Positions 15,593-64,000 of a stretch of DNA of 64,000 bases are shown here, piece after piece (position 1 is the stretch's first letter; the number at the start of each line of letters is the position of its first letter). The notes beneath the pieces were generated by a model that worked only from the letters and a program-made list of their open reading frames with translations, ran no database searches and was not told where the DNA came from. Both the position numbers and the translations under genes were made by a program. The stretch is from Emiliania huxleyi CCMP1516 (taxonomy: Eukaryota): NCBI RefSeq assembly GCF_000372725.1, contig NW_005202368.1:294293-358292 (forward strand). The letters are read 5' to 3'.

Positions 15593-18500
15593 ATGCGCCT
15601 CCTTCTGCTCGGCCTGCTTGCGGGGCTCGCGGTCGCCGAGAGCGGCCCGACCCTCATCCCTGGCGACGCCCTCGGCTCGGACTCGGCCATGCACGCCAGC
15701 ATCGACCACGACTGGAAGACCTGCTCCGCCTTTCACGGCTGCCGCGGCGGCGACCGTTCGGAGAAGATGGTGAGTGTCGAACTCGCCGGCGCCGGCGCGG
15801 CCGGATCGAGCGCACATCACGCGCCGAACGCCTCCGCGTCGCTCGCCGGCGCGGAGGCCCACAAGTGCACCATGAACGAGTGCCCGTGCGCGACCAGCGA
15901 GTCTGGGGACGCAAACGTGTGCTGCAAGGACAACAAGTTGAGCGAGTTCTCGATCGAGGGCGATTCGGCGCGCGCCACTCCTGGCCGGCCCTCCCTCCGC
16001 GAGGGCTGGTGGTGCTGCGCCTCTGCGGCGGTGCTGCTCCTCGAAGCGTGCGGCGCCTGCTGGCTGCTGCTGGGGCAGCGGGCGCCGCGCTCCGGTGCAG
16101 CCTCGCGGCAGCGATCCAGCAAGGCGGTCCGTCCCCGGCTGAGCAAAAAGGGCCGCGGCCGCGGCTCGCACCGGCGACCGAAGCCGCGCGGACCGCAGGT
16201 GCGCAAATGCAAGTCGCCGTCCGGCTCTGGCGGCACTGGCACTAGCGCTGGCGCCGCCGCCGGCGCTGGCATCCGCTGCACTGGCATCCGCGCCGGTCTC
16301 AAGCAGGCAACCGGCCGCGTGCAGAGCAGCTTTGCGGGTGCCCCATGCGCCACCATGTGCATCTGGTCTTGCTTCATCCGCACCGGCCTCTGCGCGTCTG
16401 TGGCCGGCCCGGCGGCCAGCAGGGCGGTCCTTCCCCGGCTGAGCAAGAGCCGCAGCTCGGTGGCCTACTTGCTCCTGCTGCTCGTTTTCTTCCCCGTGGC
16501 TCGGGCTGGCTCGGGCGAGGCTGGCTCGGGGGGCGAGGCTGATTGCGCGGACGATGCAGCGTTCAGAGATCCTTACGGCTACAGTTGCTCCGACTGGCTC
16601 GGATATGATTGCAGCTTCTACACGGGCTACAGTCCAGTTGAATTGGCCATTCTCCGCGAAAACTGCCCTCTCAGCTGCGGCAGTTGTTCGCCACCGCCGC
16701 TCCAGCCGCTACCCCCGCTGCCGCCACCACCACCCTCTGCACCGCCGACGCCACCTCTGCTCCCGCCACCACCGCCGCCGCCACCTCTGCTCCCGCCACC
16801 ACCGCCGCCGCCACCTCTGCTCCCGCCACCACCGCCGCCGCCGCTGCCTCCGCCGTGTCCGCCGACGCCGCCACTGTCCCCCTCCCCCTCTCCCCTCTTC
16901 CTCGACCAAACCCCATCCGCAGACGGCCGCCGCCGCTTCCCGCTGCCGGCCGTCCGCCCAAGCGGCAGTTTTGCTTACCCGCCGTTGCCAAACTGCTCCG
17001 CCACCAACAGGGTCGGGTGCATCGGTGTCCCAATGACGGTTCTGTCGCCGCTGGCAGCCTGGAACGGCTCGCTGGAGTTGGCGGGCGATGTGGCCGACTA
17101 CTTCACTTCGGCCGTCGATGGAGACTTGGGGTTCACCATCCCTGGAGGGAGCAGCAACACTTACTCCACTTCGGTGGCGGACGTCGACGGGGACGGGAAC
17201 ATGGACGTCGTCGTCGGCAACTACGGCGAAGAGAACCAAGTCCTCTTTGGGAGCGCGGGCGGAAGGACCTTCTCCGAGGTCGCCCTTCCTGGAGGGAGCA
17301 GCAACACTTACTCCACCTCGGTGGCGGACGTCGACCGGGACGGGAACATGGACATCGTCGTCGGCAACTACGGCGAAGCGAACCAGGTCCTCTTTGGGAG
17401 CGCGGGCGGAAGGACCTTCTCCGAGTTCGCCCTTCCTGGAGGGAGCAGGAACACGTACTCCACCTCGGTGGCGGACGTCGACGGGGACGGGAACATGGAC
17501 ATCGTCGTCGGCAACTACGGCGAAGCGAACCAGGTCCTCTTTGGGAGCGCGGGCGGAAGGACCTTCTCCGAGTTCGCCCTTCCTGGAGGGAGCAGCAACA
17601 CTTACTCCACCTCGGTGGCGGACGTCGACCGGGACGGGATCGTGGACGTCGTTGTCGGCAACCACGGCACAGAGAACCAGGTCCTGTTTGGGAGCGCGGG
17701 TGGGAGGGCCTTCTCCGAGGTCGCCCTTCCCGGAGGGAGCAGGTACACTTACTCCACCTCGGTGGCGGACGTCGACCAGGACGGGAACATGGACATCGTT
17801 ATCGGCAACCTCGGCGCAGCGAACCAGGTCCTCTTTGGGAGCGCGGATGGAAGGACCTTCTCCGAGTTCGCCCTTCCTGGAGGGAGCAGGTACACTTACT
17901 CCACCTCGGTGGCGGACGTCGACCGGGATGGCATCCTGGACATCGTCGTCGGCAACTCCGGCGCAGCGAACCAGGTCCTGTTTGGGAGCGCGGGTGGGAG
18001 GGCCTACTCCGATGTCGCCCTTCCTGGAGGGAGCAGGAACACGTACTCCACCTCGGTGGCGGACGTCGACCAGGACGGGATCNNNNNNNNNNNNNNNNNN
18101 NNNNNNNNNNNNNNNNNNNNNNNNNNNNNNNNNNNNNNNNNNNNNNNNNNNNNNNNNNNNNNNNNNNNNNNNNNNNNNNNNNNNNNNNNNNNNNNNNNNN
18201 NNNNNNNNNNNNNNNNNNNNNNNNNNNNNNNNNNNNNNNNNNNNNNNNNNNNNNNNNNNNNNNNNNNNNNNNNNNNNNNNNNNNNNNNNNNNNNNNNNNN
18301 NNNNNNNNNNNNNNNNNNNNNNNNNNNNNNNNNNNNNNNNNNNNNNNNNNNNNNNNNNNNNNNNNNNNNNNNNNNNNNNNNNNNNNNNNNNNNNNNNNNN
18401 NNNNNNNNNNNNNNNNNNNNNNNNNNNNNNNNNNNNNNNNNNNNNNNNNNNNNNNNNNNNNNNNNNNNNNNNNNNNNNNNNNNNNNNNNNNNNNNNNNNN

Positions 18501-21500
18501 NNNNNNNNNNNNNNNNNNNNNNNNNNNNNNNNNNNNNNNNNNNNNNNNNNNNNNNNNNNNNNNNNNNNNNNNNNNNNNNCGGTGGCGGACGTCGACCGGG
18601 ACGGGAACATGGACGTCGTCGTCGGCAACTACGGCGCAGCGAACCAAGTCCTCTTTGGGAGCGCGGGCGGAAGGAACTTCTCCGAGGTCGCCCTTCCTGG
18701 AGGGAGCAGGAATACGTACTCCACCTCGGTGGCGGACGTCGACGGGGACGGGAACATGGACATCGTTGTCGGCAACTACGGCGAAGCGAACCAGGTCCTG
18801 TTTGGGAGCGCAGGTGGGAGGGGTTTCACCGAGTTCGCCCTTCCTGGAGGGAGCGGGCAAACTCGCTCCACTTCGGCGGCGGACGTCGATGGGGACGGGA
18901 TCCTGGACATCGTCGTCGGCAACAAGTACGCAGCGAACCAAGTCCTCTTTGGGAGCACGGGCGGAAGGACCTTCACCGAGGTCGCCCTTCCTGGAGGGAA
19001 CACAAGTACTCGCTCCACCTTGGTGGCGGACGTCGACGGGGACGGGAACATGGACGTCGTTGTCGGCAACTACGGCGCAGCGAACCAGGTCCTGTTTGGG
19101 AGCGCGGGCGGAAGGAACTTCACCAAGGTCGCCCTTCCTGGAGGGAGCAGGAACACGTACTCCACCTCGGTGGCGGACGTCGACGGGGACGGGATCGTGG
19201 ACATCGTGGTCGGCAACTTCGGCACAGAGAACCAGGTCTTTTTTGTTGGCTTCTGCCCGACGGGAGGTGCACAGGTCCACGGCAAGAGCTGGTGCTACAA
19301 GTGCCCTTCCTTCATGGGACTCGCGGGCGCCTCCTGCGTGGAGTGCCTCCCCGACTTTGTGCAGCAGCCCGGGAGCGGAGAGCTCTGCGCATCAGACCCC
19401 TGCCCCCTTGGCGAGCGCCCGTTCGGCAGCGACGCGTGCACCGCTTGCAAGGACAAGCCGGGCGTCTTCTACAACACCAGCGCCGCCGCGGCGCGCACAG
19501 AGCGCGACTCAACCACATGGATTCAACCCAGTTGCGTGGAGTGCCCAATGGGCAGCGTCGCGAACGGTGTCGCCGTCGACGAGTGCTTTGCTTGCGCTGC
19601 GGGTTCGTACCAGAACCTGATTGGCCAGGCCGAGTGCAAGCGGTGCCCCGCGGGCCAGTTTCAGCCGGAGCGCGGACAGACGTCGTGCGACAGGTGTGCC
19701 ACGGGCGGATACTGTGATGATGCCGAGAACTGTGGCGGCGGCTTCACGCCCTGCCCAGCGGGTACATTCAACGAGAAGACGGGTAGCAGCTCGTCCGACG
19801 CCTGTCAGCCGTGCCCCCCCGGAACCTCTAGCCCGACCGCCGGCGCAGACAGCAGCGAGACGTGCGCGAGCTGCCGTGCTGGGACGTTTGGTGGCGAGCC
19901 CGGGCTGAGTGAGTGCACGGACTGCCCTCCCGGCGCGTCGTCAAACCAAGGGAGCGATTCGTGCGAATCGTGTGAGGCGGGCTCTTACGCCGCCAACGCT
20001 GGCCAGGGCCAGTGCATCCCATGTCCTCATCCCCTCGGTAGTGGGCGCGGCGACGTCATTTGCTCCGTCTGCATGAAGGACTACTACCTGCTCTCGAGCG
20101 CCGACCCCGACGACATCTTCAAATCCCCGACCGATTACTGCAAGTCCTGCCCGCCGAACGCCGACTGCCCAGTCAACACGACTCTCCAGTCCCTCGGTAT
20201 CCCGGCCGGCTTCTGGCGCGCTAGCCCCTTCAGCGCCGTGTTGACAGAGTGCGGCGGCTTTGGCGGCGATGGCGAGGCCGGCAAGCAGCGATGCGCCGGC
20301 AGCGAGGCAAAGGCCTCTCGTCGCCGGAGGATGGAGGCTTCGGACGAGTACTGCGCTTCCGGCTTCACTGGCCCGGAGTGCCAGCTCTGCGTCGCAGCGA
20401 ATCACTACCTCGTCGACGGATACACGTGCGAAGAATGCGCTCCGCGCGCCGCTGTGGCTGGCCGCATTGTCGCCCTCGTCATCGGTGCCTGTATTGCCTG
20501 TGGCCTCGCGGTTTGGGCCTACAGCATGACGAAATGGCGGAAGGAGCGCTTCATCGGCCGCGTGCTCCGCTTTGCCGATCGTGCCGTCTACATTTACGTC
20601 GCGATCGGCCTCACGGCCAAGACCAAGGTTCTAATAGATGCTCCCGTTGGTTGGGAACCGATATTAGCAAGCGCCGACCTCGGTGATAGTCCATATTAGC
20701 AAGCTAATAACCGACCTGATAGGTGCTCTTTGGATTCTACCAGATCTGCACCGTGTTGTCCTCCACCTACTCGGCGCGGCTGCCGCCAGAGTACACGGGC
20801 TGGACCGACAAGCTGGCTAATACGGTCTCAATCGACTGGTCTGGCCTTTTCCTGCCGCAGCAGTGCCTCGGCTACGATTTGCGGCTGCTCGCCATCGCTC
20901 TCTCGCCCGTCGCCTTCATCGCACTGCTCATGGCAGCCGGGATAAGCCTGCGGCTCTACCGCTGGCGTGCCGCGCCGCCACCGCGCCCAATGGAAGCGAC
21001 GCCGGGAGCCGACACCGATGCAGCATTCGGCCTCGTGGAAGCATCGATGTCGGTGATGTCGGCGATCGCTGACGCGATAAACGCAGACGAGGACGCTCCG
21101 CGTGCGGCGCCGTGGTATGCTGAGGCGGCCCTCGGCGTCCTCGATCTCACGCCTGCCGGTTTGGTGCTCATCTTCTGCTTCGTGCCCTCCATCAGCGCCT
21201 CCATCTTCCGCGCGTGGTCATGCAAGGTAATGCCCCCAAACTGTTGACTGCTGCCGAAACCGACCCCCCTTCAGCGCTCGCCGTGTGTCGCTCATAGGCC
21301 TACACCATCTCTCCGCCCGACTCGCCTCTCGAGCAGGTCTCCTACATGCGGCTGGACGCGAGCGTCGAATGCTACACCGAGGATCACGAGTCCATCGCCG
21401 ACCTCGCCATCGGCCTTATCGCCCTGTGGCCTGCGGGCTCGCTGATCCTCTTCACTTCGCTCCTCGTCGCCTGCTACAAGCCGCTACAGGCCAAGAGGCC

Positions 21501-23488
21501 GAATGCCCTGACGCGGGCCACCGGCTTCCTCCACCGGGAGTACAAGAAAAAATGCTACTGGTGGGAGGTGGTCGAGCTGGCGCGCAAGCTCGTGCTCACG
21601 GGCTTCGTGCTGCTGATCCCGGAGAAGAGCGCCTTCCTTCGCCTCGTGGTGGCGACCCTCGTCTGCTCCTTCTACGCCGTCGTGCTCGCCGTCGTGCGGC
21701 CCTTCAAGCGGGTCGAGGATAACGTGCTGGCCGTGGTGCGCCAGCCACCCCTCACCCCCTTTACACTTGCTAAAGCGAGGCACGGCTTGGATTGCAGGCC
21801 ACCAGCCTCGTGCTCCTCCTCCTCTTCCTCGCCGCGAACTGGACGACCATCTTCCTCGGTATCATTGAGCGCTCCAGCGTCGACACCGCCGATGCAGTCC
21901 TCGGCTTCGATAACCTGTCTGAGATCATCAACTCGATGCTCGTCCTCGTCGGCGTGACGCTGCTCTTCTTCCTCATCGGTGCCGTCTTCTCCGCCCGCCA
22001 CGCCAAGGAGGTTCCCACGATCCGCCTCGTCTCGACCAACCAGCCGCCCGAGCTGAGCGTCGGGATGGGCATCACGTGGCATCTCTTCAACAGCCACATC
22101 TGGAGTACCGGTCAAGACGCCGTCGCGGTCATCAAGAAGCAGCTGCAGATCCTGCTGCCTGGCATCAAGATCTTCCTCGACGCGCGCGCATGCTGCCCAG
22201 TCGCGCTGCATGGCGAGCAAAGCCCCTCTGACGCACCGCGGTGCGCGCATAGGTAGATGACCTCAAGGATATCGGAGCGCTCGAGGAGTACATCCAGCGC
22301 TCGCAGGTCATCCTCTTCTTCCTCTCTAGGGGCTACTTCAAGTCCAGGGCGCCTCATGCTTCTATCCTGCCTCTGTCATAGCCCAAGCTCCCTTGCCTCA
22401 CCCCGTGCCCGCCTGTGCGCCATAGAACTGCCTTCGAGAGGTCCGCTCGTCGCTCGAGATGGACAAGCCGCTCGTCCTCGTCCAAGAGGCCGACCCGGCC
22501 AAGGGCGGCGGGACGCTACCAGCGCTGCGCGCAGAGTGCCCCGAGGAGCTCCAGCCCGACATCTTTGACAAGGACTGGCCGCTCACGATCTGGTACCGGA
22601 TCAAGGAGTTTCAGATTGTCTCGCTCAAGATCACCGCCGAGGCGCCCCCGCCCGCAGCCAGAGCCCCTCCGCAGTCCTCTCCCTCTCCCGACCAACCCCA
22701 CTTGAACTCTACAGGCGCTGCTCCTTTGTTCGCCCAACTTTCTGGACAGCACCTCCCTTCCGCTCACAGTGACGGGCGAGCTGCGGATCAGGGCATTCGG
22801 CTTCTCCACGTTCGCAAAGGTCTGGGCCTCTCCGGCCAACGCCGGCGCAAAGGAGCTGGCCGATGAGCTCGTCGCCGCCTTTCCCGGCCTCACCGTCTCC
22901 ACCGCCGAGGAGGCTGGCGACGCGACCCACATGCTGCTCTACCTCAACGAGCACAGCTTCAGCGACGAGCGGCTGGCCGAGCAGGTTACGCAGGCGCGCC
23001 AGGACAGGCTGCCGATCGTCATGGCGCACGAGAACGACCCGGACCGCGGCGGCTGCGAGTTCGCCAAGTTTTTTGAGACCACGCCGCAGGTGGAGCGAGT
23101 GACACCCGTCCTGAGCCTCCCCTCCCCCCACAAACCTCTCCTTCCAACGCCGCAGGAGCTCATCGCGGGCGGGCTCTACAAGGACCTCGCGCGCTCGTGC
23201 TTCCCCGGGCGCCACCGCGAGGCGCGCGCTCGCCCCCTCGCCGCCTGGTGGGCGCTCACCGGCCGTCACGCCGCGCTGCTCAACCCGCCCCCCGCGTAGG
23301 CGTCGCTCGTGCTCCTCGCAAAGGGTCTCGGCGCGACTCCGGTCAAGAGCGCCGACCTCAGATCGAGCATCGTGCGCCGCACGTCAACGGCCTTCCGCAG
23401 CCTTGGCGGCGTCCGGCTCCGCGCCTCAGAGCGCTCAACCTCGGGAGAAGCCGAGGCAGCGACGTCGGCATCGGCAGAGCACGTGTAG
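15593..23488 (+). CDS. Receptor-like protein A: ShKT-like Cys domain, poly-Pro, FG-GAP repeat array, GCC2/ephrin-receptor-like Cys-rich repeats, about 8-9 TM helices, TIR plus a second TIR-like domain
   Basis: Signal-like MRLLLLGLLAGLAVA at 15593 (true start uncertain). Inferred introns: 20628-20722, 21227-21297, 21736-21797, 22182-22252, 22349-22425, 22642-22714, 23090-23155, 23222-23299. Splicing gives 'WHLFNSHIWSTGQDAVAVIKKQLQILLPGIKIFLDVDDLKDIGALEEYIQRSQVILFFLSRGYFKSRNCLREV' (TIR). Stop TAG ends at 23488. The frame across the N gap cannot be verified. Confidence 0.85.
17141..19245 (+). repeat. Coding tandem repeat of 147 bp (49-aa FG-GAP/VCBS blades), at least 12 units, interrupted by a gap
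   Basis: Units start at 17141, 17288, 17435, 17582, 17729, 17876 and 18023, and after the gap at about 18696, 18843, 18990 and 19137. Each has the Ca-binding-type motif DVDGDGxxD. Confidence 0.95.
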
Positions 23489-24136: not shown

Positions 24137-24185
24137 CCACGCCGTATGGCACCTCTCGCGCGTCCACCCGCTCGCACTACACCTT

Positions 24186-29206: not shown

Positions 29207-29273
<67 letters not shown>

Positions 29274-31486: not shown

Positions 31487-31543
<57 letters not shown>

Positions 31544-31658: not shown

Positions 31659-34600
31659 ATGAGCTTGTCTGCGGCGGGGGCCGGCGCGGCTGCAGACGCG
31701 CCGCTGCTCGGCCAGCGCGTCCTGCTCGGCGGGCTCTCCTCCCGCCCCGAGCTAAACGGGCAGCGGGGCGTTGCGCAGAGCTTCGAGGGCGGGAGGTACG
31801 CGGTGGCGCTCGAGGGCGGCGGCGAGAGCGTGCGGGTGCGGCCGGGTAATCTGTCGCCGGCTGCGGCGGAGCGGGCGTCGAGCGGTGCCGCGGCAGCCCC
31901 CGATGCGGTCATCGCAGCAGCGGAGCGTGGCGAGGAGGAGGCGGTGCTGGCGTGGCTTGAGGGCGGCGGGCGGGCCGACGCGACGTACGAGAGAGACGGC
32001 TTGAGCGGCCTCACGCTGCTGATGGGCGCCGCCAACAACGGCCACGAGCGAGTGGTCGAGATGGTGCTGCGGGGCGGGGCAGAGGTCAACCTGCAGAACA
32101 GCAGCGGCTGGACTGCGCTGATGATGGCCGCCTTCCAAGGCCACGAGCGGGTGGTCGACCTGCTGATACGGCGCGGCGCGGAGGTCAACTTGCAGAGCAG
32201 CAAAGGCGTCACCGCGCTGATGCACGCCGCTTCCTTCGGCCGCCCCGCCGTCGTGCGGCGCTTGCTGCGGGCGGGCGCAAACACCGCGGCGCGCAATGCG
32301 AGCGGCAAGACGGCGCCGCAGCTGGCCAAGGAGAAGGGCAACACCGAGTGCGTCGAGGCCTTCAAGAAGCACGTCCAGGAGGTGGTGGCGGGACGGCTCA
32401 CGGCGACGGCAGCCGACGGCGAAGGCGCAGGCGGCGCTTCCTCCGGCGGCGCTTCCTCGGCTGGATCGAGCGTCGCGAAAACGCTATCTCCAGCGGTGGC
32501 GGCGGGGCGGGCGTCAAGCGGTGGCGTGGTAGTCTCCGACGAGGTCGTGGCAGCGGCTGAGCGAGGCGAGGAGGAGGCGGTGCTGGCGTGGCTTGACAGT
32601 GGCGGGCGGGCCGACGCGACGTACGAGAGTGACGGCGTCAGCGGCATCACGCTGCTGATGGTCGCCGCTTGCTACGGCCACGAGCGGGTGGTCGAGTTGC
32701 TGCTGCGACACAGTGCAGAGATCAACCTGCAGAACAGCAAAGGTGGCACCGCGCTGATGGTCGCCGCCCGCACCGGCCACGAGCGGGTGGTCGACTTGCT
32801 GCTGCAGCGCGGCGCGGAGATCGACCTGCAGAACAGCAGCGGCAACACCGCGCTGATGGCTGCCGCCGGCTACGGCCACGAGCGGGTGGTCGAGCTGCTG
32901 CTGCAGCGCGGCGCGGAGATCAACCTGCAGGAAAGCGGCGGCTCCACCGCGTTGATGTTCGCCGCCGGCAACGGCCGCGAGCGGGTGGTCGAGCTGCTGA
33001 TTCGGCGCGGCGCGGAGATCAACCTACAGGACAGCGACGGCGACACCGCGTTGATGACCGCCGCCTTCGGCCACCCCGCCGTCGTGCGGCGCTTGCTGCG
33101 GGCGGGCGCAGACGCGGCGGCGCGCAATGCGAGCGGCACGACGGCGCTCCAGATGGCCAAGGAGCAAGGCCACGCCGCATGCGTGCGCGCCCTCGGGGAG
33201 CATGCGGCGGCGGCGGCGGCGGCTGAGAAGGCGGCGAAGGAGGCGGCGTGGGTTGCGGGGGCGGAGGCGAGGGAGGCGGAGAGAGCGGCGGCAGAGGCGA
33301 CTGCGGCGCGGCATGCCGAGGCGCTGCTGGCGGAGGAGGAGGCGGAGAAGGAGGAGCGCGCCAAGGAGAGCAAGAAGGGCAAGAAGAAGAAGAAGAAGAA
33401 GAGCGGCGGCGGCGAGGCAGACAACGAGGCGCCTGGCCCCAGCGCCACCGCCGATTTGCAGCCGCCAACCCCACCGCCAGCCCCATCTCCTCCGCCCGCC
33501 GACGCAGCCGCCATCGCCGCGGCGGACGAGGCGCTGCAGCAGGCAGTGGCCGCTGGCTCGTACGAGGGACTAGCGAGCGCGCTGGAGGCGTACAGCAGCC
33601 TCGCGAGCCCGGCCGTGCTGGCGGCGGCGAGGCGCGCGCGTGACAAGCTCAAGGAGGCGCGGAGGCGGGACAGCCAGCGGTTGCGCAAGGCGCATGGCGC
33701 GGCGATGGGCGCGCTCAAGTCGCTCGACACCGCAGACAGCCCCTCCGCGCTCCGAGCGGGCATCGCCGCCGCCAGGCCGCACGTGGGCGCGCTGCCTGCT
33801 TTGGCCGAGGAGGTTAGCGCGGCAGAATCGAAGCTGGGAGAGCTGTCTGTCGCCGCCGCGCCAGCCGCGGCGGAGGCGGCTGTTGCTCGGCCAGTCGAGA
33901 TAGCCCTGTCGGACCTCACCGCGGCTACCGACGGGTTTGCAGAGGGCAAGCTGATTGGCAGCGGCGGCTTCAGCCACGTCTACGAGGCGTCGGCCGACCT
34001 CCACCTCTCCCTCGCCGCGCCGCCGCAGCTGCGCCACTTGCCGCTCGTCGTCAAGCGGGCAAAGTCGGGCCAGTCGGGCGGCTTGTCTCGGGCGGAGCTC
34101 GAGGTGAAGCTTCTCAAGGCGGTGAGCCACCCGCACCTGCTGCCGCTGCTCGGCTACTGCCTCTCGCCCGACGGCGTCTGCCTCCTCTCGCCGCTGATGC
34201 GCGGCGGCTCGCTCGAGGCGCGGCTGCGTATCTCGGATCCCGACCGAGCGGCGCAGCTCCGGCGGCTGGGGATGGTAGAGCCGCCGAGGCCGCTGACGTG
34301 GCGGCAGCGCGTTCGCATTGCGTGCGAGGCGACCGAGGCGCTCGTCTACCTCCACTCGAAGGGCATCGTGCACCGCGACGTGAAGCCGGACAACATCCTG
34401 CTCGATGAGGAGCTGACCGCCGTGCTCGCCGACACGGGCTTCGCCAAGGACCAGCGGCCGGACGCGTCTGTTCGCTGCCGCTCGACTGCCCTCTACATGA
34501 CCACGGGCTACCTCTGCCCCTCCATCACCAAGGGGGGCGAGTACTCGAGCAAGACGGACGGCTACGCCATCGGCATCACCCTCCTCGTCTGCCTCACCAG

Positions 34601-44526: not shown

Positions 44527-45762
44527 CTAATTTGGCTGCGCCAAAGCTGGGCCAAAGACATCGAGATGGATGCTCCGCGCGCCCGCCGCCTTGAGCGCCG
44601 CGGACATGTCCGCGAGGAAGGGCGGCGGGCCGCAGAGGAAGAAGTCGCATTCCGCCAGGTACGGCTTGAGGGCGCCCTCCACGAGCGCTGCCGCCTCTGG
44701 CCGCCCGCCCGCGTCTGTGTAGTGGAAATGCGTCCCGGCACTGCTAGCCTCCATCTCCTTCCGAAAGGGGTGCGCCGCCTCGTCCCTGTCTATGTGCAGG
44801 ACGAACTTGACCTGCTCGGGCGCACTGTCGAGAAAGCACTTCATCGGCGTCGCGCCCACCCCTGCCGAGCAGAGCACCGCCGGGCGGCCGCTCAACTTGA
44901 ACGTGCCAAAAGGTGCGGAGACGCCGACGACGTCGCCCTCCTTCATGCCGTGGAGGGCGGAGGAGACGAAGCCGCCCTCGACAAGTTTCGGGCAGCACTG
45001 CAGGTAGTCCTTGCCGGGCGCGTTCGTCACGGTGTAGTGGCGTGGCGTCGAGCCCTGCTTGTGCAGGTGCAGCGTCAGGAACTGGCCTGGCGTGAAGTCG
45101 ATTGGTCCGGCGCCGTCGACAGGCTTGAAGGTGAGCTCCACGCAGTCCGTCGCGACGCGCCGGGTCCCAGCCACCCTGAAGTCCTTCACCCCCTTCCAGC
45201 CGCCACGCCGCCCCGCCGACTCGGCGTAGAGCTTTGCCTCCAGCTCACAAAGGTTCTTGGCGAGAGCAAGCACGGCCTCGCTCCAACCCTCGCCAACCTC
45301 TGGCGTGACAGCGTCGCCCATGACGTGCCCGATAGACTCCATCAGGTTCTGGTGCACGATCGAGTAGTGGCGCGGCTTGACGCCGAGGCCGCAGTGTTTG
45401 TGAGCGATGATCTCCAGCGCCCCCGTCAGCTTGGACAGGTCGTCGATGGAGGTGGCGTAGGCTACGACTGCGTTGGCCAGCGCCATGCGCTGCAACGGCG
45501 GCTCCTTGAACTGATTGGCCGGGTTGAAGAAGGCCTTTGCTTCAGGGCTGTTGCTGAACATGCGAGGGTAGAAGTCGTCGACGATCTCTCTCACCTTGGG
45601 TGCGACCGCCGGTGCTGTCGCCTTGACGATCGCGGCGAAGGGGCAGCCAGACATAGTCACCGCCGGAGACGTCGACTTGACGATTGCGGTGGAGGGACAG
45701 CCAGACATGGTGTCTGCCAGAGATGTCGAGTAGCCGATCGCGGCGGAGGGGCAGCTAGACAT
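44527..45762 (-). CDS. hmp: Flavohemoglobin (nitric oxide dioxygenase), intronless
   Basis: Globin domain (FYxxMF, FNxANQ, IAHKH, HY), FAD-binding motifs (PGQF, RHYTV, GFVS) and NAD-binding motifs (SAGVGATPM, LCGP, FGP). Alternative starts at 45762, 45708 and 45654. Confidence 0.95.
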   Translation of the reverse strand: MSSCPSAAIGYSTSLADTMSGCPSTAIVKSTSPAVTMSGCPFAAIVKATAPAVAPKVREIVDDFYPRMFSNSPEAKAFFNPANQFKEPPLQRMALANAVVAYATSIDDLSKLTGALEIIAHKHCGLGVKPRHYSIVHQNLMESIGHVMGDAVTPEVGEGWSEAVLALAKNLCELEAKLYAESAGRRGGWKGVKDFRVAGTRRVATDCVELTFKPVDGAGPIDFTPGQFLTLHLHKQGSTPRHYTVTNAPGKDYLQCCPKLVEGGFVSSALHGMKEGDVVGVSAPFGTFKLSGRPAVLCSAGVGATPMKCFLDSAPEQVKFVLHIDRDEAAHPFRKEMEASSAGTHFHYTDAGGRPEAAALVEGALKPYLAECDFFLCGPPPFLADMSAALKAAGARSIHLDVFGPALAQPN

Positions 45763-46411
45763 GGCGCGGTGGCTAACGAGCCGGACGCCGCGCACGGAGG
45801 TCATGGGTGAGGTCAAAGGCCGGCAAGGAGATTGCTGACACGTTCAGGCAGGACGTGTTGGCGGCGCCCTTATTGCAAGATAAAAAATCTGGGTGCACCC
45901 AAGTGTCAAGCGTTGAGCACCGGTGTCTCTGGGAATGGTAATAGTATTCCGCATTCATTGCGAGGGCGGACGGTCTCGGGAACCGTACCCATACTACTCA
46001 AAAGTACAATATCTACCACAAAGCATGCAGCAGGTGGGCGTGCGGAGCGTCGGGCATCGGCTCGCCATCCCGGGAGCTTCCCTTGAGCGGCCCGGGCTGG
46101 GACCGACCGCGGGAGGCTGCCTGCCTGCACCAACCAACCAACGGACATGAGCGATCCGCAGTCGTCGAAGAGCCCCCCCCCCCCCCCCCCCTGCTAGTGT
46201 CTGTCGTCGTTCCTACCCCTGATCCTACCCCACGGCACGCTAATGTCTGTCATCTCCAGCGCACAAAAGAAAAATTTGGTTATCCCGCAGGAAACCGGCG
46301 CTCAACCAACACCCCCTTGTTACACCCCACCACCCGAGCTGCAGCAGGTGAGGAAGCTGTCCGCGTCTCTGCTCGGCACGCAGTGGGCCGGGATCGAGTC
46401 GCCCCCCGCCA

Positions 46412-48191
46412 ATGCGCCGGAGTGTTTTGCGGATTCGCTCACTCACTGCCGCTGCGGCCTTGTCCGCCGGCTCCACCCTCCGCTGCGAGCCCTCCGCTCC
46501 CTCAGCAGCCAAGCAGCAGGAGCGCGCGTCGAAGAGTCTCGCCATGCAGCAGGAGGTTTCGGCCGCCGAGAATAGCGGTGCGGCCCGCTTCAACGCCGCC
46601 CAGAACCCGTCCACCTTCCGCGTCGACGTCTCTGTTCAAGCCGAGCCGGAGGTCGCCGCGGCGAAGCGCTTTGAAGAGGAGCTGGACAACGCTCTCGATC
46701 ACCACGCAAAGCTTACCAAGGCCTACTCGCCACCGTCCCTGACTCTCCCACTCGCCACCGTCCCTGACGACTGCTACCAGCATGGCGGCCGCCCTCACCG
46801 CGCCTCCCCCCGTCCTCAAGGTTGACGCCGTCCGTGTGGCCGCCATCGAGGCGCTGCCGCGCATCAAGGCGCCCCTCACCATGGCGCCCCACGTGCCGCC
46901 GCCCATTGAGCGGAGAACGCCGGCCCGCCTCGTCGTCGACTTGTACAGCACGGAGAAGACGATGCCTGTGTCGCCATCCTGCAAGTACCCGTTCTGGACT
47001 TTCAACGACGGCGTGCCGGGGCCGATGATCCGGGCCCGCGTCGGGGACGTGCTCGAGGTACCTACGGCCGCCTCTCCGCCGTAGCCCTTCTCCTCTCGGT
47101 CGCCCCCTCCGCGCCGCGGCCCTGACCCCCGACCCGCCTCCACCAGGTGAACTACACGAATCGGGCCGAGTCGGGCATGGCGCACAACATCGACCTGCAT
47201 AGCGTGGTGGGCCCAGGCGGCGGGGGCCCGTGCCTGTATGCGGAGCAGGACGAGACCAAGACAGGCATTTTCAAGTGCACCTCGCCTGGGCTGTTCGTGT
47301 ACCACTGCGCGGCTGCGCCTGTGCCGGTCCACATTGCGAACGGCATCGCGCGCCGCCTGCCCCGCCGAAGCCCCGGCCTCCCCACCCGCAGCGCTGCGGC
47401 GGTGGGCGCCACCCCTACTAGTCGGCATCTCCCTTCTCTTACCAGGCACCCACCCCTCGCCGCAGGCATGTTTGGCCTCGTGCTTGTGGAGCCAGAGGGC
47501 GGGCTGCCCTCCCCACCGCCACACCGCCTCTGTCTGCTCACCGCCACGCCCGAAACGCCTCGCGAAGGCGCTCTCACCGAAGCGTGCGGCGCGCCGCCTC
47601 CGCGCAGGCGGCCTTCCTCCGGTGGACCGAGAATTCTACGTGGTGCAGCACGAAGTGTACTCCGCCGAGGACGAGGAGGGGTCGAGTGTGCTGGAGCTCG
47701 ACTACGAGGCGGGGCTGCGGGAGAGTCCGACGTATGTGGTCTTCAACGGCCGGGAGGGTGCATTGACCGAGAGGCCGCTGATGGCGAAGCAGGGCGAGCG
47801 CGTGAGGATCTACTTCGGCAACGCCGGGCCCAACCTGATCTCGAGCCTCCACGTGATCGGCGCGATCTTTGACAAGGCCACGTCGTGCTAGTTGCGGGTG
47901 GGGCCCGAGGTTTCGAATTAAGTTGCCTATTACTGCTAGGTCTATCGCGAGGGCGACCTGATCTCGCCGCCGGCGCGGGGTATCGGTGTCACGGCGGTTC
48001 CTGCTGCGGGTACCACCGTGGTCGAGTTTGACGCACTCGTACCCGGCAGCTACACCCTGGTGGACCACAGCATATTCCGCATCGACAAGGGCGCCGTGGG
48101 CTTTCTGAAGGTGAAGGGCGAACCGAGGCCCGACCTGTACGACTCCAAGGAGATGAAGGTGTACTGCGATGGGTGCAAGCTGCACTCGTGA
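46412..48191 (+). CDS. nirK: Copper-containing nitrite reductase (NO-forming), 6 exons, with a putative mitochondrial presequence
   Basis: Inferred exons 46412-46720, 46821-47057, 47147-47342, 47466-47498, 47608-47876 and 47940-48191. Motifs WTFNDGVPGPMIR, HNIDLH, YHC...HIANGM, YVVFNG, NAGPN.ISSLHVIG and LVDH supply the type-1 and type-2 Cu ligands. Confidence 0.93.
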
Positions 48192-48258
48192 GAGGGGGAA
48201 TTGATTGATGGGAAGGCGAAACACAGTCCGACCAACGACTGGGACACCAACGCGTTAT

Positions 48259-48450: not shown

Positions 48451-48451
<1 letters not shown>

Positions 48452-50118: not shown

Positions 50119-50235
<117 letters not shown>

Positions 50236-56837: not shown

Positions 56838-56922
<85 letters not shown>
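56381..56922 (+). mobile_element. SINE-like repeat fragment (56381-56577) and a (GT)n-tailed element copy (56701-56922)
   Basis: Both match other copies in the window. Confidence 0.75.
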
Positions 56923-56923
<1 letters not shown>

Positions 56924-58275: not shown

Positions 58276-61200
58276 CTAGACGGATTGCTGACCCGCCGAT
58301 GTCTCGTGGCCGACGTCGCCACCGTCGTGGTCGCCGCCGCCGCCGCGGACCGACCGTTCGAAGAGGCCGCCAACGGCGCGGCAGACGAGGCTCTTCCAGC
58401 GGCGGAGGTCAACCCTTGCCCGGGCCGGAGTCGCGCCGAGGCCCTTAGCCACGAGCACGAGCGACACCTATGGAGGGGCTCGCGGGCGTCACGCGGGGGA
58501 AACCGGCGCGGAGAACGCCCTCCGCTGCCGCGCGCCTCGTGGTGGCGCCCCGGGTAGCACGATTTCGCCAGGTCCTTGTAGAGGCCTCCGGCGATGAGCT
58601 CCTGCGGTGCATTGGAAGGAGAGGTGGAGGGCATGGGACACGGCGGGATGGCCGCGCCTCTGAGAGAGTCGCTCTCCTGCGGCGTGGTCTCAAAGAAGCG
58701 CGAGAAGGGCACGCCGCCCTTTTCGGGGTCGTTCTCGTGCGCCATCACGATCGGCAGCCTGTCCTCGCGCGCCTGCCTGACCTGCTCGGCCAGCCTCTCG
58801 TCCGACCAGGTGTCCTCGTTGAGGTAGAGCAGCATGTGCGTCGCGTCGCCGGCGCGGCGCGGCGCCGAGCGGCGCATGATACTGGAGAAGCGGCCCGAAG
58901 CCCGGGATGCGACAGAGCCGCGGTCCTCGGCCGTGGAGACGGTGAGGCCGGCGAAGGCGGCGGCGAGCTCGTTGGCCAGATCCACCGACCCCGCGTTGGC
59001 CGGCGAGGCCCAGAGCGTCACGGGCTTCGCAAGGGCGAACGAGTGGATGCGCGGCTCACCCGGCACGTACAGGCCGAGGGCGTCCAGCCCGTCGTAGTCG
59101 GGCGAGCAGAGGAGCACCGCCTGTGGGTGCAAAGCGGGAACGTCCAGATACTAGAGAGAGAGGGGCGCGGTGTATGAACTAACGGCGCCTCGACGATGGT
59201 CTTGAGCGAGACGCGCTGGAACTCCTCGATGCGATACCACGTCGTCTGCGTGCGGCCCTGGTCAAAGATGTCCGACTGCAGTTCGTCAGGGCACTCATCG
59301 CGCAGCGCCTGCAGCGTCCCGCCGCCCTTGGCCGGGTCTGCTTCTTGCACGAGGACGAGCGGCTTGCTCTGCTCGAGCGTCGCCCGGATCTCGCGGAGGC
59401 AATTCTGGCGGCGCGCGCGGAGCGAAGGGTGAGCTGCGGGGAGTGTCGAGGGGGGGCTCGGCGGCTCGCGCTGCGTTGGGGAGGCGTGGCCGGGCGGCGT
59501 GCGAGCGCCGGTGAGCGGAAGTAGCCCTGCGAGAGGAAGAAGAGAATCATTTGCGTGCGCCGGATGTACTCCTCGAGCGCCCCGATGTCTTTGAGATCAT
59601 CGACCTATGAGTACAAGACGCGCTGTCAGAGGCGCTGTCTCCCTGTACGCGGCGCGATGAACATGCGCGCGCGCGCGTCGAGAAAGACTTTGATGCCTGG
59701 CAGCAGCAGCTGCAGCTCGCTCTTGATGACTCCGACGGTGTCTTGACCAGTCGACCTATTCGGGGTCGGGGATGCCTCATGCGCGGTTCGGACCCTCTTC
59801 TTCCCTCCGCAGCTGTGATTCACCAAATGTGCGAGAGGAAGAGGTGCCACGCGAGGCCCCGCGCGAGGGTGAGTTCGGGCGGCTGCTTGGTGGAGACAAG
59901 GCGGATCGTTGGGACCTTGGCCGTGAGGCGGGCGGCGACGACGGCGCCGGCGAGGGAGATCAAGAGCGCAACGCCGGCCAGGCCGATCATCGTGCTGACG
60001 ATCGGGTTAAGCTTGCTGAAACCGAATACGGCAGAGGCATCATCGGTTCCGGAGCGCTCCACGATTCGGAGGAAGATGGTGGTCCAATTGGCGCCGAGGA
60101 AGACGATGAGGAGGATGAGGCTCATCGCGACGGCGAGGACAGAATCCTCGACACGCTTGTACGGCTTGGTGGCGGCGACGAGCGCGACGTAGCAGGAACA
60201 GATGAGGGTTGCCACCACGAGCCGAAGCAAGGCATTCTCCTCCGGGATCAGCAGGACGAAGCCCGTCAGCACGAGCTTGCGCGCCAGCTCCAACGCCTCC
60301 CACCAGTAAAAGGTCGTTTTGTACTCCCGATGGAGGAAGGCGGTCGCTCGCGTCAGCGCCGTCGGCGTCTTGGCCTGCAGCGGCTTGTGGCAAGCGAAGA
60401 GGAGCGCCGTGAACAGGACCAGCGAGCCGACGGGCCAGAGGACGATGAGGCCGATGGCGAGGCCGGGGATAGACTCGTGATCCTCGGTGCCGCACTCGAC
60501 GCTCGCGTCCAATCGCATGTAGGAGACCTGCCGCAGCGACTCGCCGGGCGGAGAGACAGTGTAGGCCTATCAGCAGCAACCCCCTAGGACTGAGGGTGGT
60601 GTGTATGCAATGGCATTCCTCAGCTGGAGGCGCCTGGCAACTCCACGCGCGGAAGATGGAGGCGCTGATGGAGGGCACAAAGCAGAAGACGAGCACGAGG
60701 CCGGCCGGCGTGAGGTCGAGGAGGCCGGCCAGTGCGTACCACGGCCTCGCGTGCGGCGCCGGGGCGGCGCGCCAGCCGTGGAGCCGCAGGCTTACTCCAG
60801 CGATCATTAGCAGCGCTATGAGGGCGATGGGCGAGAGGGCGATGCCGAGCAGCCGCAAACCGTAGCCGAGGCACTGCTGTGGCAAGTAAAGGCCCGACCA
60901 GTCGATGGAGACGGCGTCGGCCACTGCGTCGGTCCAGCCCGTGTACTCTGGAGGCAGACGCGTGGAGTAGGTGGTGGACAAGACGGTGACAATCTGGTAG
61001 AAGCCAAACAGGATCTTGAACTTGGCCGTGAGGCCGATCGCGATGTACCAGTAGACGGCACGGTCCGCGAGGCGAAGCAGACGGCCGATGCAGCGCTTCT
61101 CCCGCCACTCTGTCATGCTGTAGCAATACGCCGCGAGGCCGCACGCGACGCAGAGGCCGAGGATGAGGCCGACGATGCGGCCAGCCGCCGCGCCGCGCGG

Positions 61201-64000
61201 AGCGCACTCCACGCACGCGTCGCCGTCGGCAAGGTAGTGATTATCCGCGACGCAGAGCTGGCACTCGGGGCCGGCGAAGCCAGGGGCGCAGTACTTTGAG
61301 CCCGCCTCCACCATCCTCCGGCGGCGAGAGGCCTCTCTCGCCACCGGCTCGCTGCCGGCGCATCGCGTCTTGCCGGCCTTGCCATCGCCGCCAAAGAGAC
61401 GGCACTCTGTCATCACGGCGCTGGAGGGGCTGGCGCGCCAAAAGCCGCGCTTGACGCCGAGGGTCTCGAGGGTGGTATTGTCTGAGCAGACAGCGTGCGT
61501 CGGGCAAGGCTTGCAGTACTTGGTCGGGGATTTGAAGATGTCGTCCGGGTCGGCAGTCAAGGTCGGCAGGTAGTAGCCGCCCATGCAAAACGAGCAGGTG
61601 CTGCTGCCGTCGGCCGAGCTGAGGGGGTGAGGGCACGGGACGCAAAGGCCCTGGCCGGCGTTGGCGGCGTAATTGCCAGCCTCGCACTCGTCGCACGCGA
61701 AGCTGCCTGCCTTCGACGAGGTGCCGGGAGGGCAAGGCTCGCACTTGGCCTGCCCCTTGTTTTCGGCAAAAGTGCCAGGCGAGCACGGCGTCGGCTCGAT
61801 GCTGCCCGTGGAGCAGGCGCTGCCGGCGGGGCAGGCCGTGCACTCGCCCGCGTCGGCGAGGTCGGTCGCGTTCGCGTAAGTGCCGGAAACGCAAGGAAGC
61901 GCCGCCGCCGCGCCAACGGCGCAGTAGTGACCCGGCAAACACGCCTTGCACTCCGTCTTGCCGGTCTCATTCTGGTACGTGCCGCCGGCGCAGGGCGTGC
62001 ACTCGCCCTGCCCGTACGCGTCCGTGTACGACCCCTTGGCGCACACCGACTGCTCGGTGGAGCCGGCGGCGGCGAAGTGGCCCGGAGCGGCGTCGGTGCA
62101 CTCGCTCGCGGCGGTGAGGTTTGTGGCGTTCGAGTACGACCCGGCGGAGCAAGCAAGGGGGACTTCCGCGGTCCCTCTCGGGCAATAGCGGCCAGCAACG
62201 CAGGGCAGCGGCTCATAGGTCGCCTCTGTGGGGCACTGGGAGCCAGCGGGGCAGGGGCCGGCGCAGCTGCTGCTCGACTGGTCCTCGGGGTCGGCCGAGC
62301 CGAGGAGGCCGGCGGCGCAGGCGAAGGGGAAGTCCTGCTCGACGGGGAGAAGCGGCAGCTGGTAGAGGCTCTTGCCGAGGAGGGAGGGATCGCCGCCGGT
62401 CTCGTTGTTCCAGTTGCACGGCTGCACAAAGGTCGTGTCCTGGCAGTGCCACTCGCTTTTGACGTCGAGGGTGAGCGCGCAATGATCGCGGTGCTCGAGG
62501 CAAGCCGTTTGCTTCGGTGTAGGTTTGCCGTTGACGTCGTTGCCGTAAGAGCACGCCTCCCGGTACACCTCGCAGCGCGCGTTTGGCAGCCAGCGGCCGG
62601 CCGGGGCGGGGAGGGTGTAGGAGACCTCGCCAGCGAGTAGGAAGACGGAATTCCCCTGACCCTCAGCAGAGCAGCCGCTGATGAGGGTGCCGTCGCTCAG
62701 GGAGGTGCGCCCACCCGCCGAGTAAAGGCCGCCGCCAGACTCTGTGGCGATGCAGTTGGAGATGGTTGAGCGGGCCAGGCTGGCTGAGCCCGACGCAACG
62801 TACACTGCTCCGCCTCGCCTGGCATTGCAATCGGAGATGGTGGAGTCGGTCACGTTGAGGTCGGTGCCCCACGTGTATGTCGCTCCGCCGTCCTGCCAAG
62901 GAGGCGCGACAGGCCTTGTGGAGGGGCTGCAAGCACGAGGGGAGGCGCGGCGAGGCGGGCGGTGACTCTCCTTGCCTTGTCTTGAGCCTACTCACCTCTT
63001 CATGGGCGGTGTGGAGCTGCAAGGAAGTGGCTAGCTCTACGCGGCGCACAAAGTAAGCCGAGCAGCCCGTCGCCTTCGAGCTGGTTATCGAGACCGCACC
63101 GCTCTCAAGCGCGTTGACGACGCCGCCATACTGCGGTTGCGAGGAGAGAGCGGGGTGAGGCAGCCGTGGCCCTCTCCATCGCTCGCCCCGCTGCTATGTG
63201 GTGCAGGCTGCAGGGCGGCGGCTAGCTCTAAGCGGCGCACAGTGGCAGAGCAGTTCCTCAGGGTCGAGTCGATTATCGAGACCGCACCGCTGTTCACCGC
63301 GTAGACGACGCCGCCGTACTGCGGTTGCGAGGAGAGAGTGGGATGAGGCCAGCCGTGTCCCTCTCTATCTCTCGCCCCGTGGCTGCGAGGCGCACCTCGC
63401 CAGCCCAGCAGCCAGTCACGGTCGAGCCGATTATCGAGACCGCACTGCTGTCAGACGCGTGGACGACGCCGCCGTACTGCGGTTGCGAGGAGGGAGAGCG
63501 GGATATTAGGTAGGCGTGCCCTCCCCATCTCTCGCCCTGCTGCTGTCCGGCACTGCAGGGCGGCTAGCTCTAGCGCACATAAGAAGCAGAGCAGTCTCTG
63601 ACCGTCGAGTCGATGATCTCGACGTCGCCTGCGCCTTTCGCGTTCACAGCGCCGCCCCACTGCGGTTGCGAGAAGAAAGCGGGGTGAGACTGCCGTGGTC
63701 CATCTCACGCCCCGCTGCCGTATGGCGCTACTGGAGGTGGCTAGCTCTATGCGGCGCACCCTTTCAGCCGAGCAGCCAATCACGTTCGATCTGGTTATCG
63801 AGACCGCACCGCTGTTCCACGCCCTGACGACGCCGCCGGACTGCGGTTGCGAGGAGAGAGCGGGGTGAGGCAGACGGGCCCTCTATTTCTCGCCCCGATG
63901 CCGTGCGGCGCTGCAGGGCGGGCTGCTAGCTCTGCGCGGCGCACCCGGCCAGCCAAGCAGCCCGTCACGGTCGTGTCGATGAGCGAGACCACACTGCGAT
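58276..64000 (-). CDS. Receptor-like protein B (5'-truncated by the window edge): right-handed beta-helix/PMP-like repeats, Cys-rich GCC2-like repeats, about 8-9 TM helices, TIR plus a second TIR-like domain
   Basis: Paralogue of 15593-23488 from the Cys-rich stalk to the C-terminus (RLDASVEC, FLHREYK, WHLFLSHIWSTGQD, KVFLDVDDLKDIGALEEYI, NCLREI, ELIAGGLYKDLA). Long exon 62892-60634. Upstream mini-exons of 78-81 bp encode GGVV/GGAV repeats. Confidence 0.88.

Follow-up and report, generated by a model that had tools for sequence, protein, structure and literature searches.

A main result of this analysis is that two genes within a 64,000-nucleotide stretch of the Emiliania huxleyi CCMP1516 genome (contig NW_005202368.1; hereafter the window) share an architecture in which an ectodomain and its Cys-rich stalk are followed by nine predicted membrane helices and two TIR units, and that they belong to a large protein family expanded in haptophytes. 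What an earlier note had observed in these genes, here designated gene A and gene B, is confirmed, but its presentation of 15593-64000 as one feature is not: the genes lie 35 kb apart, with unrelated genes between them. Splicing yields open frames for both (Table 1), and six intron positions are common to the eight introns located after the N gap in gene A and the seven located past the repeat exons in gene B.

Table 1. Features of gene A and gene B (positions in the window)
Feature	Position	Strand	Remarks
Gene A, whole	15593..23488	+	about 2,430 aa; ATG 15593, stop 23488; N gap 18083-18579
Gene A, exons	15593-20627 (holds N gap), 20723-21226, 21298-21735, 21798-22181, 22253-22348, 22426-22641, 22715-23089, 23156-23221, 23300-23488	+	
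Leader, gene A	15593..16510	+	from sequence; true start putative
ShK-like six-Cys domain, gene A	16541..16690	+	Pfam ShK E 0.0018, 19.2 bits, below 20.9 cut-off
FG-GAP beta-propeller repeats, gene A	17084..19250	+	49 aa each; 7 upstream, 5 downstream of N gap
Cys-rich stalk, gene A	19251..20450	+	Ephrin_rec_like repeats (Pfam)
Nine-helix membrane core, gene A	20451..22004	+	predicted; mapped from homologue P0008 model
TIR1, gene A	22074..22726	+	FLDVDD motif; catalytic-position Glu codon 22438-22440
TIR2, gene A	22811..23329	+	degenerate duplicate; Gln at Glu position, 22982-22984
Gene B, 5'-incomplete	58276..64000	-	stop 58276-58278; 5' end past 64000
Gene B, exons	62892-60634, 60566-59824, 59755-59677, 59604-59509, 59404-59189, 59120-58677, 58601-58536, 58467-58276, plus upstream repeat exons	-	
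Beta-helix-type repeats, gene B	62617..63998	-	putative fold, from paralogues
Cys-rich stalk, gene B	61192..62322	-	Ephrin_rec_like E 6e-12
Nine-helix membrane core, gene B	59922..61191	-	predicted; 74% identical to gene A
TIR1, gene B	59109..59852	-	Glu codon 59390-59392; 76% identical to gene A
TIR2, gene B	58438..59024	-	Gln at 58782-58784; 81% identical to gene A over aligned residues

The leader of gene A runs from a signal-peptide-like start through a small Cys-rich segment, a hydrophobic segment and a basic stretch to a second signal-like segment, all with putative roles, and hydrophobic-basic-hydrophobic leaders of a similar kind occur in the relatives P0001, P0003, P0004, P0185 and P0209. 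After the ShK-like domain, a Pro-rich linker (to about 16890) leads to the FG-GAP repeats, which probably total 14-15 and may form two propellers; Pfam FG-GAP_3 matches them at E 1e-46 and 2e-35. One unbroken frame of 682 codons links these repeats to the stalk and reaches as far as helix 1, and it is joined by splicing to the next exon in two sequencing runs presumed to be RNA. The earlier note had made its reading depend on transcripts that link the ectodomain to the membrane and TIR exons: splice joints are present for six of the eight gene A introns in contigs of the presumed RNA runs, but none of these contigs spans the whole distance from ectodomain to TIR. The public model of gene A (P0009, EMIHUDRAFT_108214) comprises leader and chassis and skips the ectodomain.

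Six mini-exons carry the gene B repeats; their lengths range from 18 codons (cut) to 27, a phase-0 GT-AG intron comes after each, and the set appears to be the product of tandem exon-intron duplication. A beta-helix fold, as the earlier note had it, is suggested by the repeat pattern and by two paralogues (P0003 and P0209) that score with Pfam Beta_helix, although the repeats themselves had no Pfam score in scans of the window exons. Joints fitting four of the seven introns of gene B occur in short contigs only, possibly derived from paralogues, and no mini-exon joint was seen in contigs of the presumed RNA runs. The intron at 58676 has a GA donor and no joint among the contigs; as it is 75 nt long and in frame, it could be retained.

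Comparison of the two proteins by BLASTP reveals 719 identical residues out of 1,195 (60%, E 0.0). Over 40-residue windows of the alignment, identity is 22-35% up to post-gap residue 440 (position 19899) and 50-82% afterwards, with the exception of one insertion in gene A and of the tail, and the FG-GAP region reaches a local score of merely 35 against the N-terminal part of gene B. The genes are hence alike from the last Cys-rich repeats through the helices to the TIR units and carry unrelated ectodomains, just as had been proposed from the letters of the sequence. Pfam likewise recovers the domains named at the time, with FG-GAP_3 in gene A and Ephrin_rec_like in both genes.

The membrane core of both genes was mapped from the model of a homologue (P0008; pLDDT 85, pTM 0.84), all modelled structures being those of homologues and not of the window's spliced proteins. 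It predicts nine helices, narrowing an initial estimate of about 8-9. Together with the model, the distribution of Lys/Arg in the loops of gene A (7, 5, 8 and 3 inside; 2, 2, 1 and 1 outside) and that of sequons in the window genes (the ectodomains have 5 and 7, the tails 0) predict an N-out/C-in topology, in agreement with the cytoplasmic TIR domains supposed before. Near-invariant Cys residues (97-100%) sit in outside loops of the core, and TIR1 begins about 23 residues past helix 9, with no kinase between. Foldseek found no solved structure for the core model at E <= 0.001 and the best VIA match had a Z of 7.7, with none reaching 8; these searches show neither a new nor a different fold. 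An IMG/VR scan returned 98 pattern matches and 0 relatives, and a CeV 'Toll-like receptor' was discarded as a relative, since it matches the TIR fold only weakly (rank 22, with 15% identity).

The modelled TIR1 of homologue P0015 resembles the SARM1 TIR (Z 14.3, rmsd 2.2, 129 aligned residues), which bears out the predicted TIR fold on a homologue of the window proteins, and the same search gives IL-1RAcPb at Z 13.8 and MyD88 at Z 12.7. Pfam TIR_2 matches spliced relatives and none of the window's single short exons. The putative catalytic Glu is indeed kept in both genes (NCLREV in A, NCLREI in B) and in 153 of 154 TIR1 sequences of relatives, preceded by Cys in 148 of them; the family profile places it opposite the HKE Glu of C. 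elegans TIR-1, in a weak match (E 0.013). Glu-bearing protist TIRs have been reported to produce cADPR (bioRxiv 10.64898/2026.04.20.719644) and a membrane-tethered amoeba TIR to be an NADase (bioRxiv 10.64898/2026.04.30.722052), as far as the accessible parts of these preprints go. TIR1 likely cuts NAD+ to signal. The second TIR-like unit is homologous to the first (HHalign 94.4%, E 8.8e-8, 61 columns) and alternates strand and helix in the model, but it has Gln instead of Glu in both window genes (Glu is found in 84 of 146 relatives) and lacks the FLDVD-type BB-loop motif, which is present in 197 of 226 TIR1 and 3 of 208 TIR2 sequences. It is a degenerate duplicate and likely non-catalytic. 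A complex prediction for TIR1 and TIR2 of P0012, in which the alignment went unused, scored 0.00 and speaks neither for nor against pairing. NELF-C/D rows in the family-profile search were set aside as below cut-off or repeat by-products, and Pfam matches to UNC80_C, TcdB_midN and Dockerin as under cut-off or arising from repeats.

Core, TIR1 and TIR2 occur together in 201 of the 229 proteins examined, and well over 100 other proteins hold the full architecture within a single ORF. A search at E <= 1e-30 gave 4,446 matches, of which the best 150 were looked at; this figure is expected to take in core-only and Cys-repeat proteins and is therefore not the size of the family. The named members are all haptophytes (Gephyrocapsa/Emiliania and Prymnesium), a range based on few named matches. 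At least ten ectodomain types can be recognized by profile, including beta-helix, two FG-GAP types, Venus flytrap, Kelch, Bmp, GH19, LamG, C-type lectin, WD40, MAM, GPS, CUB and NMT1-like domains; among 55 long ectodomains scanned, 24 carry a named sensor domain and 14 proteins have no Pfam match at all. Neither the window exons nor the nine-helix members scanned with Pfam matched any LRR family. Venus flytrap, Bmp, GPS and beta-helix ectodomains are as compatible with the sensing of nutrients, adhesion or mechanical cues as they are with defence.

The modular family with swapped ectodomains that the earlier note envisaged is therefore upheld by at least ten types and by the sister of gene A, P0185, which is 86, 93 and 95% identical in core, TIR1 and TIR2 and has different ectodomain repeats. 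The FG-GAP region of gene A thus appears to be a recent swap, even if faulty public models, as seen in P0009, make the P0185 ectodomain no surer than its own model. On the tree, ectodomain labels change 11 times, as against 19.4 with shuffled labels, and this clustering indicates that swapping is slow and occasional instead of free. The accompanying notion of a constant membrane-TIR chassis is not supported in that form, since core and TIR pair exchange too and the TIR pair is also found on single-pass receptors (7 of 229). FG-GAP ectodomains are found on related cores without a TIR (5 of 24), and some members have C2, EF-hand or PDZ tails. We infer that new receptors arise by recombination at module borders, chiefly in the repetitive stalk.

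Multi-pass TIR genes are known to be virus-induced in the same alga (Shaler et al. 2025, PMC12489294), and the accessible text of that study describes TIR genes whose products have several membrane helices or an extracellular part, notes a conserved Glu and proposes a receptor-like role. In its available tables, 15 TIR genes show differential expression, and four of these look like family members. The TIR string of one of them, cogent2074_i1, labelled a cytoplasmic, core-resistance TIR gene and up in five of five resistant comparisons, is identical to member P0020, which has a membrane core, a TIR pair and a RING domain; this published marker can thus be re-read as part of a membrane receptor and not a soluble NADase. 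Two members are up in lytic infection (cluster 3, log2 2.6-2.9 and 5.1-6.2), and one of the four, cogent9830_i1, is lowered in cells that have recovered. The five resistant comparators include two flagellated strains, so that induction could be a life-cycle effect, and the same tables gave 0 matches each for the public model of gene A and the nearest gene B model. Pattern recognition may be a function of the family, on the basis of the expression of other members in this one published study.

We give roughly even chances to the view that these proteins are receptor NADases sensing biotic threats, for instance a virus. The variable outer domain, set on the Cys-rich stalk, would bind a ligand, and the nine-helix core would relay the signal or cluster the receptors. 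Inner TIR1 would be activated by self-assembly, as SARM1 and plant TIRs are, and would cleave NAD+ into an ADP-ribose-type messenger, while TIR2, without catalysis of its own, would either restrain TIR1 or take part in the assembly; the messenger would most likely report a biotic threat, for example a viral one. The same receptor-enzyme mechanism might serve to sense nutrients, surfaces, mates or life-cycle cues, which we regard as rather unlikely. The Venus flytrap, Bmp, NMT1-like and GPS ectodomains agree with such a role, as do the flagellated comparators, the absence of the window genes from the available infection tables, the slow swapping and the purifying selection between A and B (crude dN/dS 0.32-0.49). 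Nonetheless, two members rise in lytic infection itself in the accessible data, Glu-bearing TIRs are mostly linked to immunity or cell death, and GH19, lectin and LamG ectodomains would suit microbial glycans.

It seems quite unlikely that the core is the working part, an ectodomain-gated, calcium-permeable channel of FLC/Pkd2 type (PF06011) with the TIR pair as a regulatory add-on. Repeated weak profile similarity in the second half of the core suggests remote kinship, but every score is below the 28.5-bit cut-off, both on gene A exon 21298-21735 (E 6e-4, 19.2 bits) and in the seven of 44 members matching at E <= 0.01 (best 25.5 bits). The best viral fold match of the core is a giant-virus protein named after PF06011 (E 5e-3, TMt 0.38), the HHsuite table of PMC12489294, in its accessible part, lists TRP and TIR for one member, and Pkd2, described in the available source as passing calcium on stretch, also has nine predicted helices, N out and C in, a match in helix count. 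The C2, EF-hand and PDZ tails and the FG-GAP ectodomains on TIR-less cores point the same way. On the other hand, the conserved core residues are mainly Cys, Pro and aromatic, and the TIR pair on single-pass receptors implies that output is possible without the nine-helix core. That TIR1 is a TLR-style scaffold recruiting cytoplasmic TIR adaptors, with no meaningful enzyme activity, is improbable: the Glu kept in all but one TIR1 is absent from most TLR and interleukin-receptor TIRs, even though IL-1RAcPb and MyD88 match nearly as well as SARM1 and the alga has soluble TIR proteins. That the ectodomain-TIR fusions stem from assembly or annotation errors, or that the two copies are dead, could be suspected from the N gap and ectodomain-less public model of gene A and from the GA donor and thin RNA cover of gene B; the open frames, the spliced 682-codon frame and the many single-ORF relatives render this highly improbable.

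Building on the receptor-NADase reading, one may speculate, with little confidence, on a haptophyte combinatorial immune repertoire whose exchangeable cassettes would be three, namely a sensor, a nine-helix core of FLC/Pkd2 type and a TIR with its pseudo-TIR, and in which each protein would be sensor, channel and enzyme: ligand would switch TIR1 on, ADP-ribose messenger and core calcium flux would trigger an antiviral state, and repertoire differences among strains would help set which algae survive giant-virus infection in blooms. The family offers concrete candidates for the means by which bloom-forming algae perceive giant viruses and withstand them; our literature search found no characterised surface immune receptor of bloom-forming algae. 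A search that covered mainly open papers, in one instance with weak wording, found the architecture undescribed beyond Shaler et al. (2025).

A nine-pass core joined to a catalytic TIR and a pseudo-TIR would be a design distinct from those of SARM1, TLRs and plant NLRs; it would also provide a handle on the role of the poorly understood FLC/Pkd2-like fold. One close precedent is the set of receptor-like, multi-helix TIR genes with conserved Glu in the same alga (PMC12489294); the accessible text of that study does not define the family, its nine-helix core, the second TIR or the exchange of ectodomains. SARM1, C. elegans TIR-1 and plant TNL TIR NADases are the best fold match, sharing with TIR1 a DVD-type motif after beta-B and the Glu on helix alpha-C. 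SARM1 and plant TNLs are cytoplasmic and under ARM-SAM or NB-LRR control, whereas control here would be external, via the multi-pass core, and a degenerate TIR follows in tandem. TLR and IL-1 receptors, choanoflagellate TLRs and Kinase TLRs (PMC6040629) have the same order of outer domain, membrane and inner TIR. The label of Toll-like receptor analogue holds for the predicted cytoplasmic C-terminal TIR and is otherwise loose, because the family lacks LRR and Ig hallmarks, has two TIRs and nine predicted helices in place of one, keeps an enzyme-type Glu and shows at least ten outer domain types; choanoflagellate Kinase TLRs differ also by the kinase between their membrane helix and TIR. The core weakly resembles fungal FLC and fission-yeast Pkd2 proteins and not TLRs, but no Ig-like lipid-binding domain was seen in the family, and the available description of Pkd2 includes no TIR. 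In the accessible part of 10.64898/2026.04.30.722052, Dictyostelium TirC is a membrane-tethered TIR NADase with one helix and no ectodomain, and TirE has two diverged tandem TIRs and RCC1 repeats; neither is a multi-pass receptor, unlike the family described here. Finally, class C and adhesion GPCRs place a Venus flytrap with Cys-rich region, or a GPS, ahead of a multi-pass core, as do some members of this family, but they possess seven helices instead of the nine predicted here, and the members would signal through the TIR pair fused to the core.

The DNA from 15593 to 64000, the span given in the earlier note, holds two separate genes (A and B), both of which splice to open frames, with six intron positions in common and donors that are GT, GC and, once, GA. 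Over 1,195 residues the models share 60% identity. Identity is 22-35% at first, then exceeds 60% from about window position 19899, within the Cys-rich stalk, and amounts to 51% in the stalk, 74% in the membrane core, 76% in the first TIR domain (TIR1) and 81% in the second (TIR2), bearing out the proposed likeness of the two genes from the Cys-rich repeats through the helices to the TIRs. The closest named matches are Emiliania (Gephyrocapsa) huxleyi proteins. The public model of gene A (EMIHUDRAFT_108214) keeps leader and chassis and skips the entire ectodomain, and thus conceals the architecture.

Table. Features of the two receptor genes and of the surrounding window
Feature	Position	Strand	Description
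Gene A	15593-23488	+	Open frame after splicing; 8 introns after the N gap
Gene A leader	15593-16510	+	Hydrophobic-basic-hydrophobic, before the mature ectodomain
Gene A ectodomain		+	ShK-like domain (score below cut-off), Pro-rich linker, FG-GAP repeats (Pfam)
Gene B	58276 to beyond 64000	-	Open frame after splicing; 7 introns after the repeat exons
Gene B GA-donor intron	58602-58676	-	In frame; GT at the same position in gene A
Gene B repeat exons	63050-63998	-	Each beta-helix-type repeat its own exon; phase-0 introns near-identical
Open frame	9034-11520	-	829 codons; no Pfam family at E <= 0.1
Ankyrin-kinase ORF	31659-35273	+	One exon, 1,205 aa; ~8 ankyrin repeats and protein kinase domain
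Flavohaemoglobin-like ORF	44530-45843	-	Globin and FAD_binding_6 (Pfam)
Spliced gene	~46900-48250	+	Head to head with the flavohaemoglobin-like ORF; no Pfam match for its pieces
Dispersed repeat pair	13816-14250; 14990-15425		99% over 436 bases
Dispersed repeat pair	7986-8584; 38907-39503		95% over 601 bases

The GA-donor intron of gene B could be retained. Elsewhere in the window, one dispersed-repeat copy stops about 170 bases before gene A, and the spliced gene beside the flavohaemoglobin-like ORF resembles, by its motifs, a copper nitrite reductase, so that a putatively NO-making enzyme and an NO-removing one adjoin.

The ectodomain of gene A has FG-GAP repeats, as had been proposed, of which 12 are visible around the N gap, each 49 residues long. 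That of gene B consists of short repeats, one per mini-exon, and here the beta-helix assignment stands by resemblance to paralogues that score as beta-helix in Pfam, since gene B's own repeat piece obtained no such score in the scan. With one exon per repeat and near-identical phase-0 introns, repeat number can change through exon duplication. The leader at the putative start of gene A recurs in several paralogues and may serve as an internal signal or form an additional membrane hairpin.

The model of a homologous core (P0008; 60 sequences, pLDDT 85, pTM 0.84) has nine membrane helices. When these are mapped on genes A and B, Lys and Arg are commoner in inside than in outside loops, the outside loops hold near-invariant Cys, every sequon of ectodomain or tail sits on the ectodomain side, and TIR1 comes after helix 9; the TIRs are hence predicted to be cytoplasmic. 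The core matches PF06011, the fungal FLC/Pkd2 family, repeatedly and weakly (E 6e-4 on a window exon; E <= 0.01 in 7/44 relatives), with every score below the cut-off, and the best viral fold match of the model is a giant-virus protein named for the same family. Kinship with FLC/Pkd2 is likely, and the core is not a formal member of PF06011. The top viral fold matches, BFVD A0A5J6VHI1 and A0A5J6VI06 (Megaviridae, giant viruses), one of them named TRP ion channel, may be related to the nine-helix core.

TIR2, noted earlier as a second TIR-like unit, is confirmed as a diverged TIR duplicate (HHalign 94.4%). At the catalytic Glu site it carries Gln in genes A and B and, across 146 relatives, Glu in 84, Gln in 22 and Asp in 9; an FLDVD-type motif occurs in 3 of 208 TIR2s, and the segment matching the TIR1 BB-loop region ranges from 13 to 180 residues in length. 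Residues conserved within TIR2 itself (F, P and A at 98-99%) and purifying selection (crude dN/dS 0.46) make a structural or regulatory job likely.

A profile run against 1.84 billion representatives, from which the best 150 matches were taken, places this architecture in a wider family. Core, TIR1 and TIR2 occur together in 201 of the 229 proteins examined, in seven a single helix precedes the TIR pair, and most others stop shortly after the last matched module. All named members are haptophytes, including at least 15 models in E. huxleyi CCMP1516 (some probably alleles), Prymnesium parvum and a single-pass form in Haptolina brevifila; most matches are unnamed, leaving room for a wider range. 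Beta-helix ectodomains, many labelled with a purpose-built profile, account for 39 of 59 labelled nine-helix members, and other types include two FG-GAP types, Venus flytrap, Kelch with Bmp, GH19, LamG, C-type lectin, WD40, MAM, GPS and CUB; tails include RING, PDZ, C2 and EF-hand. Two proteins (P0027, P0182) hold two core-TIR-TIR units in a single ORF, either by tandem fusion or by read-through of adjoining genes.

The notion of swapped sensors on a constant chassis holds for the sensors and fails for the chassis. In a FastTree phylogeny of 152 chassis sequences, gene A is nested in a beta-helix paralogue clade (support 95-97), distant from other FG-GAP members, and its sister P0185, with TIRs 93-95% identical, shows in its public model other repeats together with a region of beta-helix type. 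Ten ectodomain states require 11 changes over 58 labelled rows versus 19.4 with shuffled labels (0/300 shuffles reached as few as 11); ectodomain types thus pass on mainly by descent and are swapped now and then. The chassis itself is a mosaic: identity to gene A is 31-36% in the core and 72-73% in TIR1 for three relatives (P0184, P0186, P0187), whose cores cluster with a remote clade (100) and whose TIRs join that of gene A (96). Receptor kinases with a single membrane pass and related cores that lack a TIR also carry similar FG-GAP ectodomains. The exchanged cassettes are three, not two.

Multi-pass TIR genes of this alga are already published, and the literature searched held no account of the family, the nine-helix core, the pseudo-TIR or the three-way exchange. 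The accessible parts of Shaler et al. 2025 (PMC12489294) list 15 differentially expressed TIR genes and describe some, with an extracellular region or with several membrane helices, as possible receptors. Four of the 15 resemble family members (three judged by eye from partial sequences and annotations); two of these rise in infection and one belongs to an early cluster and later falls. The fourth, cogent2074_i1, which like one other TIR gene is up in 5/5 resistant comparisons (log2 5.97-15.67), is labelled cytoplasmic there. Over 82 residues its TIR string is the same as that of P0020, a model with core, both TIRs and RING to which the table annotation also points, and its transcript begins where the last membrane helix ends; it is therefore likely to represent a membrane member read without its 5' end, a short isoform being possible. 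Two points weigh against making too much of this link: the window genes were not found when the available tables were searched by two model names, and two of the resistant comparators are flagellated strains.

TIR domains such as those of SARM1 and plants need self-assembly. In the most likely reading, a ligand on the ectodomain would cluster or rearrange the receptor, whereupon TIR1 would assemble and convert NAD+ to an ADP-ribose messenger, TIR2 either restraining or aiding assembly, in surveillance of biotic threats; to this mechanism as a whole we give an even chance. The same enzyme might instead sense non-immune cues, a rather unlikely reading. That the protein is a channel first, which the likely FLC/Pkd2 kinship and the calcium passage through Pkd2 upon stretch (reported in PMC9727806) would favour, is improbable.

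A TLR-style scaffold appears more doubtful still. In the TIR model of a homologue (P0015, pLDDT 77.5), TIR1 finds its best fold match in the SARM1 TIR (Z 14.3, rmsd 2.2, 129 aligned), followed by IL-1RAcPb, TIR-1 and RPS4 (Z 13.8-13.2), and with near-equal Z for enzyme and adaptor TIRs the fold cannot tell one from the other. The catalytic-site Glu, first noted in both genes, is kept in 153/154 aligned TIR1s, and because of it TIR1 leans to the enzyme type rather than the adaptor. According to the accessible text of 10.64898/2026.04.20.719644, that Glu defines catalytic TIRs and is absent from most TLR TIRs, and several Glu-bearing protist TIRs make cADPR. An artefact is very improbable. Contigs from four runs, their RNA origin guessed, contain joints for six of the eight gene A introns, including the joint between the ectodomain/helix-1 exon and the exon that follows, as well as pieces that show zero differences inside the ectodomain; none of these contigs covers gene A end to end, and paralogues contribute to them. 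Gene B has joints for four of seven introns, in short pieces only.

The family would work like a receptor-coupled TIR enzyme. It is not a Toll-like receptor, since TLRs, as defined in the available part of PMC6040629, combine LRRs with a single-pass membrane segment, whereas Pfam scans showed no LRR here and the core is predicted to have nine helices. In its membrane core the likeness, a weak one, is rather to Pkd2, for which nine helices are predicted as well (10.1101/2022.08.11.503631, accessible portion).
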